The notes beneath the pieces were generated by a model, which saw only the letters and a list, made by a program, of their open reading frames with translations, did no database searches and was not told the DNA's origin. Positions 27,235 through 29,531 of a stretch of 29,531 bases of DNA are shown piece after piece. The position numbers and the translations under genes were made by a program. This stretch comes from an uncultured Lentimicrobiaceae bacterium. GTDB taxonomy: Bacteria; Bacteroidota; Bacteroidia; Bacteroidales; WCHB1-69. Numbering within the stretch: position 1 is the stretch's first letter; each line of letters starts with the position of its first letter. The DNA is taken from positions 1 through 29,531 of the forward strand of contig CAYZQG010000001.1 in the NCBI GenBank assembly GCA_964480685.1. Reading direction: 5' to 3'.

Positions 27235-27300
27235 TCCAATGTTAAAAGTGTACGATGTATGTACACTTTTTTTTATTGTAACAATCTAATAACAAATATC

Positions 27301-28227
27301 ATGAAAATCTCATCAACAGCAATTTTACTTTTTATTACACTATTTGCCGTTCCCGTGATTGCCTATTTTTTTGGTACTTCATTAGGCGTTTTAGAATGGC
27401 AAGCACTTCATACACTAATATTAATTGCCATTATTGCCATTGCTTACTCATTTATTGTAGGTGAATTAACCGGTAATAACAGTCAAGTAGATAAATTATG
27501 GAGTATATTACCCATTGTGTATGTTTGGGTAGTTGCCGGATACGGAAGTTTTACCCCACGCTTGGTTTTAATGGCTATTTTAGTTAGTTTGTGGGGCATA
27601 CGCCTTACAACCAATTTTGCCATGAAAGGTGCTTATCAATGGCGTTTCTGGACGGGTGAAGAAGACTATCGTTGGAAATACCTTAGAGCTAAACCCGAAT
27701 TTCAACCTCGTTGGAAATGGATGCTATTTAATTTCTTTTTTATTTGCATTTACCAACACACACTCATTCTTCTTTTTTCACTCCCTTCGTTAATAGCCCT
27801 TCAATTCAACCACACTCCCCTGCAATGGTTTGATTTTATTATTGCCGGAGCTATCCTCTTTTTTATTCTTTTTGAAATGATTGCCGATATTCAACAATGG
27901 AATTATCAAAGTAAAAAATGGGCGTTGATTAATTCCGGCAAGCTATTAATCGATGATTATAAAAAAGGCTTTTTAGATAAAGGCTTGTGGGCTTATAGCC
28001 GTCATCCTAATTATTTCGCCGAACAAACGATCTGGATATGTTTCTATTTCTTTGGCGTAGCTGCCGGCGGGCAATGGTTAAATTGGTCTATTGCCGGTTG
28101 CTTGTTGCTTATCGTACTCTTTCAGGGAAGTGCTACTTTCAGTGAAAGTATTAGTGCTGAAAAATATCCTCAATATAAAGACTATCAAAATAAAACATCA
28201 CAATTTATCCCTTTTCTTAAAGGTTAA
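27301..28227 (+). CDS. DUF1295 / steroid 5-alpha-reductase-like membrane protein (start probably 27301 rather than 27259)
   Basis: NNSQVDKLWS, WGIRLT, EDYRW, EMIADIQQW, GLWAYSRHPNYFAE and Y..YQ..TS.FIP. Confidence 0.88.
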   Translation: MKISSTAILLFITLFAVPVIAYFFGTSLGVLEWQALHTLILIAIIAIAYSFIVGELTGNNSQVDKLWSILPIVYVWVVAGYGSFTPRLVLMAILVSLWGIRLTTNFAMKGAYQWRFWTGEEDYRWKYLRAKPEFQPRWKWMLFNFFFICIYQHTLILLFSLPSLIALQFNHTPLQWFDFIIAGAILFFILFEMIADIQQWNYQSKKWALINSGKLLIDDYKKGFLDKGLWAYSRHPNYFAEQTIWICFYFFGVAAGGQWLNWSIAGCLLLIVLFQGSATFSESISAEKYPQYKDYQNKTSQFIPFLKG

Positions 28228-28275
28228 TTTGTAATTCAATTTTTATTCTTCGATTTCAATTTTCGGCATTATTAT

Positions 28276-28290
28276 TGCAACATTGTTGCA
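28276..28290. promoter_or_regulatory. Perfect 7-1-7 palindrome TGCAACA-T-TGTTGCA; candidate operator of the adjacent Fur-family regulator
   Basis: Exact inverted repeat ending 18 nt before ATG 28309. It overlaps a one-mismatch -7-like sequence (TATTATTG). Confidence 0.7.
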
Positions 28291-28308
28291 TTTGAAACAC
28301 TGTTGAAT

Positions 28309-28719
28309 ATGAAATCTGATAAAATTTTAAGCGACCATCAATTGAAGCGAACTTCTTGTCGAGAAGGTATTATTGACGTGATGATGGAATCGAAAGAAGC
28401 TCTTTCGGAAAATGAAATTCGGGAACAATTGCAAGGGAATTATGATCGCACCACCTTTTACCGCTCGTTTAAAACATTAGAAGAGAAGAAAATAATTCAC
28501 AAAATAGTGGTTGATAATCAAATCATAAAATATGCCCTGGATAATCAACATACACAGTCCGACCAACATCCGCATTTTTATTGCAATCAATGCAAAACCG
28601 TGCAATGTTTAAATACCATCAACCTTCAAACTCCTTCGCTACCCGACGGATTTGTTGAAACCGAAATGCATGTCATGATAAAAGGAATTTGCAATCACTG
28701 CCAAAAAAACAACGGATAG
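28309..28719 (+). CDS. Fur-family metalloregulator (start probably ATG 28309)
   Basis: LKRTSCR, DRTTFYRSFKTLEEKKIIHK winged helix, HPHFYCNQC and C-terminal GICNHC (two CxxC). Confidence 0.92.
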   Translation: MKSDKILSDHQLKRTSCREGIIDVMMESKEALSENEIREQLQGNYDRTTFYRSFKTLEEKKIIHKIVVDNQIIKYALDNQHTQSDQHPHFYCNQCKTVQCLNTINLQTPSLPDGFVETEMHVMIKGICNHCQKNNG

Positions 28720-28723
28720 ATAA

Positions 28724-29068
28724 ATGAATACTAAGAAATATATTGCTTTTATTTGTGTCTGGATATACATATTTCCTCTTGTATATCAACCAATTCACAT
28801 TTACAAGCATCCTATTCATTTCGATAAGGAAGAAAAAAATATTATTATCGCTTCCGAAACAAGCAAGCAAATCTTTCAATTTCATGCTACGCATAAAAAA
28901 TGTCCGATTTGTGAATTTACGTTTTTTATCCGGACATTACCTCCCTTTTCGGTATTTGAAAGCAAATTAAATCAACTAAAAATCATCTTCCACGAAAACA
29001 TAACAAAACGTTTGTTTACTGTTTTCACCATTAACATATCACAACGAGCTCCGCCGGCAATATTCTAA
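28724..29068 (+). CDS. DUF2946/CruR-like leader protein: TM segment, His cluster, CxxC, C-terminal RAPP
   Basis: Hydrophobic residues 6-21, H25/H29/H32/H54/H57, C60-P-I-C63 and R108-A-P-P111 three codons before the stop. It lies directly upstream of a TonB-dependent receptor. Confidence 0.75.
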   Translation: MNTKKYIAFICVWIYIFPLVYQPIHIYKHPIHFDKEEKNIIIASETSKQIFQFHATHKKCPICEFTFFIRTLPPFSVFESKLNQLKIIFHENITKRLFTVFTINISQRAPPAIF

Positions 29069-29120
29069 ATTACGTATCTTAGAATAATTTTCACGTTTTT
29101 TTTTAACTTCTTATACATAC

Positions 29121-29531
29121 ATGAGAAATAAATTAATTATGCTTTGGATAGGCATACATATAACGATGGTAAGCGGAGTAGCTCAATCTTTATACACTAT
29201 TTCGGGGACAATTAGGGATGAACATAATCAAGCGATTGTGGGGGCATCGGTCTATGTTGTTTCGCATAATATGGGTTGCATCAGCGACCGTAACGGCAAC
29301 TATTCCATTCACAGCTTGGAAAAAGGCACCTATTATATTCAGGTGTCGTATGTAGGCTATCAAACACATAACGATACACTTATACTTCATAAAGACACTG
29401 TTCTCCCTGTTCGTTTATTCCTTACAAGTCAAATTTTGGATGAAATAGTAATAAAAAACGATTATATTGAAAATTATAAAAAAGTAATTCCACTTCCAAT
29501 TCAAACCATTGATAATATTTATATTAAGCAA
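29121..29531 (+). CDS. TonB-dependent receptor, N-terminal part (signal peptide plus carboxypeptidase-regulatory-like domain; runs off the window end; absent from the ORF track)
   Basis: Manual translation: MRNKLIMLWIGIHITMVSGVAQSLYTISGTIRDEHNQAIVGASVYV...SDRNGNYSI...GTYYIQVSYVGYQT...LDEIVI. The frame is open to the edge. Confidence 0.85.
   Translation, partial: MRNKLIMLWIGIHITMVSGVAQSLYTISGTIRDEHNQAIVGASVYVVSHNMGCISDRNGNYSIHSLEKGTYYIQVSYVGYQTHNDTLILHKDTVLPVRLFLTSQILDEIVIKNDYIENYKKVIPLPIQTIDNIYIKQ

Follow-up and report, generated by a model that had tools for sequence, protein, structure and literature searches.

A predicted metal-uptake operon with a Fur-family repressor and a CruR-type RAPP leader in an uncultured Lentimicrobiaceae bacterium

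CruR (Bp2923) of Bordetella pertussis, encoded in the order cruR-crtA(bfrG)-bp2921, is a small membrane-targeted or exported protein whose gene lies directly upstream of that of a TonB-dependent transporter. Its RAPP motif is needed for the expression of the downstream transporter and its Cys residues for copper control, and the published definition of its family, DUF2946, comprises an export signal, a CXXC motif, and a RAPP motif three residues short of the C-terminus, at a distance of 45 residues from the CXXC that varies by no more than 1-2 (PMC9426467). In vitro work has demonstrated arrest at RAPP, the ribosome holding the two Pro codons in its P and A sites, and a global survey found RAPP-containing upstream open reading frames before TonB receptor genes across Gram-negative bacteria (PMC12992588). 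CruR is reported to be always the first gene of its operon, and the cruR promoter to have no Fur box (PMC12914433). Here we describe the 3' end of a 29,531-nucleotide (nt) stretch of DNA from an uncultured Lentimicrobiaceae bacterium of sludge (Bacteroidota, Bacteroidales; contig CAYZQG010000001.1 of assembly GCA_964480685.1), where a leader resembling CruR is encoded between a Fur-family repressor and a TonB-dependent receptor. This stretch, referred to as the window, is a whole contig (C1) of an 85%-complete assembly in 260 contigs.

Parts of this design recur in other systems. CutF from Rhodobacter capsulatus, also a DUF2946 protein, is likewise a leader that acts as a nascent chain during its co-translational export; it carries a Cys motif and, at the C-terminus, a proline stall motif, and controls the next gene of a metal operon (PMC9973294). 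However, CutF melts a stem-loop over the ribosome-binding site and induces a copper-detoxifying oxidase, whereas the locus described here has no such predicted structure and its predicted cargo serves uptake. The RAPP arrest peptides ApdA and ApdP and monitoring substrates of the SecM type combine a C-terminal RAPP with an N-terminal localisation signal and are encoded upstream of the regulated gene (PMC7897499, PMC10951233), but they monitor Sec/YidC activity and lack a metal-binding motif set at a constant distance. In Zur regulons with ZnuD-type TonB receptors, including that of Caulobacter, a Fur-family repressor acts through a palindrome at the promoter and controls COG0523 proteins as well as outer-membrane receptors (PMC6103462, PMC4176598), as predicted for our locus and its relatives. 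In contrast to known Zur and Fur systems, the box here reads TGCAACA-N-TGTTGCA, the regulator lacks several canonical sensor residues and has a clade-specific Cys17, it is itself the first gene of the transporter operon, and its response to zinc is a prediction. Finally, the DUF4625 family has been proposed to provide the lids of non-SusC TonB transporters, and in the case of the Bacteroides proteins BT1419/BT1420 the receptor is followed by DUF4625 lipoproteins (10.1101/2023.03.17.533168), as in relatives of our locus and on a second contig of the same assembly. That work gives no substrate, names neither copper nor zinc, and describes no leader or Fur-family regulator, whereas the loci considered here add a regulator, an operator and, mostly, a leader.

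We propose that the module at the end of the window forms a metal-uptake operon complete in itself, with zinc as the most probable metal, under two layers of control, namely the repressor and the CruR-type leader, and on sequence evidence we regard this as rather probable. All parts listed in a preliminary description of this DNA were present at their positions, and all except a supposed attenuator are conserved in relatives. The parts are co-oriented and tightly packed as described, since sequence and open reading frames gave gaps of 18 nt from the operator palindrome to the ATG of the regulator, 4 nt from regulator to leader, and 52 nt from leader to receptor. The reported lack of a Bacteroidota -7 element (consensus TAnnTTTG) between regulator and receptor was likewise borne out: no exact copy occurs on either strand from 27528 to the window end, and in the 17 regulator-leader-receptor loci compared, the window included, the 200 nt before the receptor start contain no -7 box. 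This absence is consistent with a single transcript. Taken together, the sequence comparisons support the view that operator, Fur-family repressor, membrane-targeted RAPP leader and TonB receptor form one compact, phylogenetically conserved module. Like CruR, its leader has a CXXC, a fixed spacer (45 residues in CruR, 44 here), and a RAPP three residues before the stop codon. Contrary to CruR, which is always the first gene (PMC12914433), it comes second, behind a Fur-family repressor; 52 nt separate it from the receptor gene, where CruR has a spacer of 162 nt with a Rho site; instead of CrtA with PepSY_TM, the cargo is a ZnuD/haem-like receptor with DUF4625 lids; the phylum is Bacteroidota, without Shine-Dalgarno-led initiation; and the metal is probably zinc.

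The leader is encoded on the forward strand at 28724-29068 and comprises 114 residues: a Lys/Arg-rich N-terminus, a membrane helix, a His-bearing linker, the motif CPIC, a 44-residue spacer, RAPP, and the three residues AIF before the stop codon, the product ending in QRAPPAIF. Its N-terminus has two Lys residues followed by a hydrophobic stretch that hydropathy places at roughly residues 6-27. The codons of C60-P-I-C63 (28901-28912) specify a candidate metal-binding motif, and those of R108-A-P-P (29045-29056) a candidate arrest site, for which CruR toeprinting would by analogy put 29051-29053 in the P site and 29054-29056 in the A site. A word-based homologue search with the leader alone returned only the leader itself; an exhaustive HMMER search found 70 relatives of 105-140 amino acids in the library, aligned end to end, and the family as a whole counts about 110 proteins of this length with full-length similarity. 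In an alignment of 64 of them (A1), with a mean column identity of 33%, P18, H25, C60, R108, P110 and P111 are invariant, and A109, C63, Q22 and H29 nearly so. Among 108 distinct relatives, the C-terminal motif reads RAPP in 101, RGPP in 6 and RSPP in 1. A Cys stands exactly 48 residues before the motif Arg in all 108, with a second one 45 residues before it in 106, and 44 residues separate CxxC and RAPP in the window leader and every relative. The tail after the motif has 2-5 residues in 97 of the 108; a hydrophobic N-terminal helix (19-residue window above 1.6 on the Kyte-Doolittle scale), preceded by about two Lys or Arg, is found in 94; and the segment from helix to CxxC holds 7.5 His and Cys residues on average. 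All four codons of RAPP vary synonymously among loci, and the constraint therefore acts on the peptide.

Two kinds of leader variation were seen. Contigs from one wastewater run carry C>T at 29058 and A>G at 29060, giving A112V and I113V with RAPP intact, which is strain variation in the leader tail. At seven loci (L028, L029, L031, L043, L044, L049 and L052) the leader has a single Cys, within the sequences CPIGEY, CLIREY, CIIMEY, CVIADY, CAIIEY and CIILEF; these leaders retain the first Cys, the 44-residue ruler and RAPP or RGPP. As the second Cys is missing, the metal ligands of this sub-branch must differ.

Pfam and NCBIfam searches with the window leader gave nothing useful, and since the leader itself falls below the DUF2946 model PF11162 (gathering score 23.7 bits, 117 positions), its membership of the CruR/DUF2946 group rests on transitive homology and motif geometry. 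Three relatives pass the cut-off, namely P0102 with 34.1 bits, P0103 with 39.0 bits (both over model positions 3-117) and P0098 with 25.9 bits (13-117), and the same three match the leader-family profile at about 1e-19. Sub-threshold matches to PF11162 were obtained for 15 of the 64 family members, and no other family was matched consistently. The window leader shows the CXXC, the near-C-terminal RAPP, the conserved spacing between them, and the N-terminal membrane or export segment of the group. It is a divergent member of the known RAPP-leader class and not a new kind of leader, and with its relatives it appears to form a divergent Bacteroidota branch of the CruR class.

Some of these features would also suit a stable inner-membrane, metal-binding accessory protein, active in periplasmic hand-off or as a partner of the TonB complex, in which RAPP would be a structural or interaction motif. 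The conserved membrane helix with its invariant Pro and His, the His/Cys-rich segment, and the tight coupling to its neighbours, as for an ordinary operon member, all fit such a role; besides, no RNA element ties the leader to receptor expression, and some operons of the same regulator work without a leader. However, the stretch between CxxC and RAPP is poor in sequence conservation and fixed in length, which fits a ruler better than a fold, and RAPP always lies close to the stop codon, at 1-11 residues (25 in a single protein), the tail behind it being variable. The family is also homologous to DUF2946, and the DUF2946 proteins CruR and CutF exert their effect as nascent chains. In addition, RAPP and RGPP rank with the strongest sequences that stall ribosomes intrinsically, and proteomes generally avoid them (PMC12992588). 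We thus judge an accessory role to be quite unlikely.

In the two-layer operon that we favour, the first layer is the product of the gene at 28309-28719 (forward strand), a Fur-family protein of 136 amino acids that matches Pfam FUR with 40.9 bits (E value 2.7e-10; cut-off 23.1 bits). It combines a FUR domain with the C-terminal structural CxxC...CxxC pair, and the clade alignment shows conservation of C17, H87-x-H89, C92xxC95 and C128xxC131. The N-terminal sensor His is replaced by Ala throughout the clade, and Cys17 is specific to it. Its nearest solved structures are Fur and PerR, and none of the NCBIfam equivalogs for Fur, Zur or PerR is reached. This is the only Fur-family gene detected in the assembly. 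Among 401 genomes of the same order, 26 others encode orthologues of 50-64% identity, and with a threshold of at least 50% identity the set comprises 27 genomes. From its sequence, the regulator appears to belong to a tight Zur-like clade.

The operator of this regulator begins with a perfect 7-1-7 palindrome, TGCAACA-T-TGTTGCA (28276-28290), which is the sole perfect copy in the assembly. A second, degenerate box, TGAAACACTGTTGAA (28293-28307; pattern search with 2 mismatches), begins 2 nt past the first and ends 1 nt short of the start codon; relatives have a TGAAA...TTGCA element at its position. The left arm of the first box overlaps TATTATTG (28270-28277, forward strand), a degenerate -7 element with one mismatch. 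At 14 of the 17 regulator-leader-receptor loci an exact TAnnTTTG is fused to the box, 39-41 nt before the regulator start codon. A TGCAACA-N-TGTTGCA box with no or few mismatches precedes every regulator of the clade examined, in all three of the operon types described below, and the upstream sequence shared by these regulators reads TAnnTTTGCAnCAnTGTTGCA, followed by a second, degenerate box. The operator is thus a 7-1-7 inverted repeat overlapping a promoter element, as expected for the Fur family, with a box sequence unlike the Fur box. Predicted binding of the repressor at these boxes would occlude the promoter and the transcript start, in a classical Fur-family arrangement.

Box-based mining of the regulon in five genomes yielded, besides the promoters of the regulators themselves, one convincing site, in front of an ATP-binding cassette (ABC)/FtsX transporter in G138, a complete genome of a relative. 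The remaining near-matches followed up in the five genomes were intragenic or not assignable to a gene, and no box sites were found at znuABC or ribosomal paralogues. In G138 (C1:3418200-3424500, L061/L095) this second perfect operator copy is fused to the -7 box TATATTTG, behind which lie genes for an ABC ATPase, a MacB_PCD/FtsX permease, and a 154-residue open reading frame without Pfam match. At L081, in one of five genomes with COG0523 GTPases behind the regulator, an ABC ATPase gene and a gene without Pfam match follow the two COG0523 genes. The ABC-type genes of G138 and L081 may be an inner-membrane component of the same regulon.

The order of repressor, leader and receptor recurs outside the window, in agreement with its description as one module. 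Leader homologues occur in 88 of the 401 genomes, about a fifth of the order sample. At 31 of 33 non-redundant loci a homologous TonB receptor gene lies directly downstream of the leader, and at 18 a Fur-family gene lies directly upstream, with one more cut by a contig end. Seen from the regulator, the synteny of all three genes holds in about 16 of the 27 genomes with an orthologous regulator. In addition, three public contigs with unrelated flanks carry the FUR gene, leader and receptor, and two of them continue with two DUF4625 genes. This arrangement is more than chance. At more divergent loci the leader is the first gene and has its own -7 box; in the window and at about 19 loci it is the second, behind the regulator. 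Seven genomes of the same genus and the other sampled genomes of the same family (G001-G024) yielded neither the leader nor the regulator clade. Both occur here and there in many further families of the order, a patchy distribution consistent with gain by transfer or with frequent loss, and the named relatives of the leader are Lentimicrobium and Carboxylicivirga.

A phylum-wide sample extended the leader family to another order of the class and to another class, always before a receptor gene. In that other order (L085-L093; 13 of 15 genomes of the genus g255) each genome has 1-3 leader-receptor pairs with no adjacent regulator, and the leaders mostly end in SLRGPP. TGCAAC...TTGCA-like boxes stand upstream of several of these loci, hinting that a regulator of the same type acts on them from another genomic position.

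The receptor gene is represented in the window by its 5' part, 137 codons at 29121-29531 (forward strand) cut by the contig end, which encode a signal peptide and a CarboxypepD_reg domain. Such a start is typical of TonB receptors from Bacteroidota. The fragment corresponds to residues 4-136 of an 805-residue receptor from the genome G035. The barrel had been described as lying outside the window, and the probable remainder of the receptor was located, together with its partner lipoproteins, on contig C100 of the same assembly (1-2389, L069). This contig opens with receptor residues 343-801, at 53% identity to the G035 receptor, followed by two DUF4625 lipoprotein genes. Since the two fragments are complementary and the assembly has no other close paralogue of the receptor, the operon most likely continues on C100, with about 200 codons in the assembly gap. 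The full-length G035 orthologue scores 151.6 bits against the ZnuD model NF038289 (cut-off 950) and 151.9 bits against TonB-hemin (cut-off 316.85), and the TonB-copper score of the receptor is far below its cut-off. The best solved structure is that of ZnuD (4rdr, 6e-24, over part of the protein). By sequence, the receptor most resembles the ZnuD and haem/haemoglobin receptor families, without reaching any curated cut-off, and is neither CrtA- nor OprC-like. The DUF4625 proteins contain clusters of His residues.

In the preliminary description the transported substrate could not be inferred, but it can now be narrowed toward zinc by the linkage of the regulon to COG0523 and the likeness of the receptor to ZnuD. 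Coordinate comparison and the fetching of exceptions distinguished three types of operon behind the regulator, all with the same operator: leader, receptor and DUF4625 (about 16 genomes); receptor and DUF4625 without leader (6 genomes); and one or two CobW/COG0523 GTPases (5 genomes). ZnuD-like receptor operons thus stand behind orthologous regulators in about 22 genomes. The COG0523-linked regulators (L073, L074, L076, L078 and L081) have 55-63% identity and often two boxes, and no receptor gene follows them. Zur regulons recurrently include COG0523 genes (PMC6103462). Because of this linkage, the ZnuD-like receptor and the His-clustered DUF4625 proteins, a Zur-like zinc regulon is favoured over copper, and the operon most probably imports zinc. 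This evidence concerns the regulon, and would not in itself establish that the leader reads zinc instead of copper.

The same architecture could therefore be combined with a leader that senses copper, either for copper import or as a copper veto on a zinc receptor, with the Fur-type protein reporting another metal. In favour of this, the CxxC and its spacing to RAPP are as in CruR, whose Cys residues are needed for copper control (PMC9426467), and DUF2946 leaders head mostly copper-related operons. However, the receptor best matches ZnuD and haem receptors, not CrtA or OprC, and scores far too low for TonB-copper; the orthologues of the co-oriented regulator control COG0523 GTPases; zinc would suit the His-rich linker and the His-rich lids no less well than copper, if not better; the second Cys is missing at 7 of the 33 loci; and upstream open reading frames before copper-related genes were not found in Bacteroidota (PMC12992588). 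We consider a copper-sensing leader unlikely.

For the zinc operon with two layers of control, the following mechanism can be proposed. In the first layer, as suggested by family knowledge and conservation, the metal-loaded repressor would bind the adjacent boxes 28276-28290 and 28293-28307. Since these overlap the -7 element and the transcript start, binding would shut the whole operon, including the repressor's own gene. The second layer is modelled on CruR by homology. The 4-nt gap would link translation of the leader to that of the regulator, and the N-terminal helix would direct the nascent leader to the membrane. The ribosome would then stall at R108-A-P-P, when the CxxC, 44 residues upstream, has just left the exit tunnel, and the metal occupancy of the CxxC would decide whether the stall persists or is released. 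If the switch works as in CruR, a stall that persists when metal is scarce would sustain both transcription and translation of the receptor gene, whereas metal binding would lead to release of the ribosome and to premature termination or polarity. Because the leader sits after the regulator gene, this switch would gate only the transporter genes and not the repressor. The cargo, by homology, would be a ZnuD/haem-type TonB receptor with a CarboxypepD_reg domain and two His-rich DUF4625 lipoproteins as surface lids. Both the direction of the switch and the metal sensed would follow from the analogy with CruR and from the regulon context. That one mRNA could integrate two signals had already been suggested; this fits the published CruR and CutF paradigms (PMC9426467, 10.1101/2025.02.05.636593), but the attenuator that was part of the suggestion fails.

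Several observations weigh against this two-layer reading. The window leader has no PF11162 match at E <= 1, and the whole genome has none at E <= 10. The assignment of RAPP as a stalling motif on Bacteroidota ribosomes would hold by homology with CruR, and in this genome RAPP was observed 0 times against 1 expected, counts too small to test avoidance. At the seven single-Cys loci the second Cys of the CxxC is replaced. When a stalled ribosome was modelled by forcing its footprint at RAPP to be single-stranded, the openness of the receptor start did not change (mean unpaired fraction 0.47 free, 0.46 stalled, 0.47 control; 31 loci), and since the modelled stall does not open the start, no read-out mechanism is supported. 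A Rho loading site like that in the 162-nt spacer of CruR would hardly fit into spacers of 30-60 nt. The RNA libraries of two runs gave just three short contigs on this stretch, which cover the window end and portions of the regulator gene and are too sparse to indicate co-transcription or an internal start. The 85%-complete assembly yielded no COG0523 gene, the association being drawn from orthologues elsewhere. Lastly, since CxxC is a copper motif in CruR, copper stays a possible ligand of the leader.

The spacer between leader and receptor (29069-29120, forward strand, 52 nt) is A/T-rich, with 8 C and 3 G and no -7 box. Across loci the lengths of this spacer are bimodal, with 30-60 nt or 130-480 nt. 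An attenuator had been proposed at 29061-29104 (forward strand), overlapping the leader stop, where an A/U hairpin of 8 bp (29061-29068 paired with 29079-29086) precedes a run of nine T (29096-29104). Both elements exist and the stop-codon hairpin forms in the minimum-energy fold, but this fold is no better than those of shuffled sequences (z -1.25), and no equivalent conserved hairpin or terminator was found in 17 short-spacer loci, including the window. A consensus scan of the forward strand for intrinsic terminators found none either. We therefore rejected an intrinsic terminator or attenuator. The short spacers of relatives contain 143 C against 74 G, with more C than G in 14 of 17; this skew, which is uncalibrated against other 5' leaders, is a faint hint of Rho involvement at best. 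Longer spacers of 210-351 nt, against the usual 50 nt or so, are found at the regulator-linked loci L022, L034, L027 and L031, and a near-identical 210-nt spacer insert is common to G035 and G297.

Another possible read-out would follow the logic of CutF, where metal induces the stall and the stalled ribosome unmasks the translation start of the next gene, here the receptor. The DUF2946 member CutF controls the copper oxidase CutO in this manner (10.1101/2025.02.05.636593), and a weak hairpin in the window includes the receptor AUG. However, induction by metal would be senseless for an uptake receptor under a Zur-like repressor. In addition, the stall site lies about 65 nt from the start, and, apart from L039, the 17 short-spacer loci show no more structure between RAPP and the receptor AUG than shuffled sequences do, and rather less. 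The modelled footprint brought no rise in predicted start accessibility at the 31 loci, and unmasking of the SecM/CutF type was accordingly discarded as a candidate. We find this alternative very improbable.

A more specific form of the preferred reading is that the leader is a zinc-sensing arrest switch nested in a Zur-type operon, whose read-out would require neither a stem-loop at the start codon nor a long Rho spacer. We put this forward tentatively, being more doubtful than convinced of it. If true, zinc would be the first non-copper metal for the CruR/CutF class, and this would be the first such switch in Bacteroidota; the repressor gene would always be transcribed with the promoter, and only the receptor and lid genes would be gated a second time.

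To our knowledge, copper is so far the only metal, and Proteobacteria the only group, for which metal-sensing arrest peptides have been demonstrated. The pairing of a repressor with a RAPP leader had been presented as uncharacterised in Bacteroidota. In the literature searched this combination is not described, even though the class of RAPP leaders itself is known from CruR. Not described there are the Bacteroidota branch, its placement behind a Fur-family repressor, the operator and regulon of this regulator clade, and the probable zinc context. The locus would thus represent a new lineage for metal-sensing leaders, in which the invariant spacing of 44 residues provides a clean built-in ruler. 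It also offers a layered design, with a classical metalloregulator and a nascent-chain sensor on one predicted transcript, the second layer sparing the regulator gene. Furthermore, an operator and a regulon can be predicted for the first time for this uncharacterised clade of Bacteroidales Fur-family proteins, along with a likely substrate class for DUF4625-lidded TonB transporters, and natural comparisons are offered by operons that have or lack the leader behind one type of regulator.

Just upstream of the module, at 27259-28227, lies a gene for a DUF1295 membrane protein (Pfam 1.9e-44), which ends 42 nt before the -7-like element. Since the flanks differ in all relatives, this gene is probably unrelated to the module.

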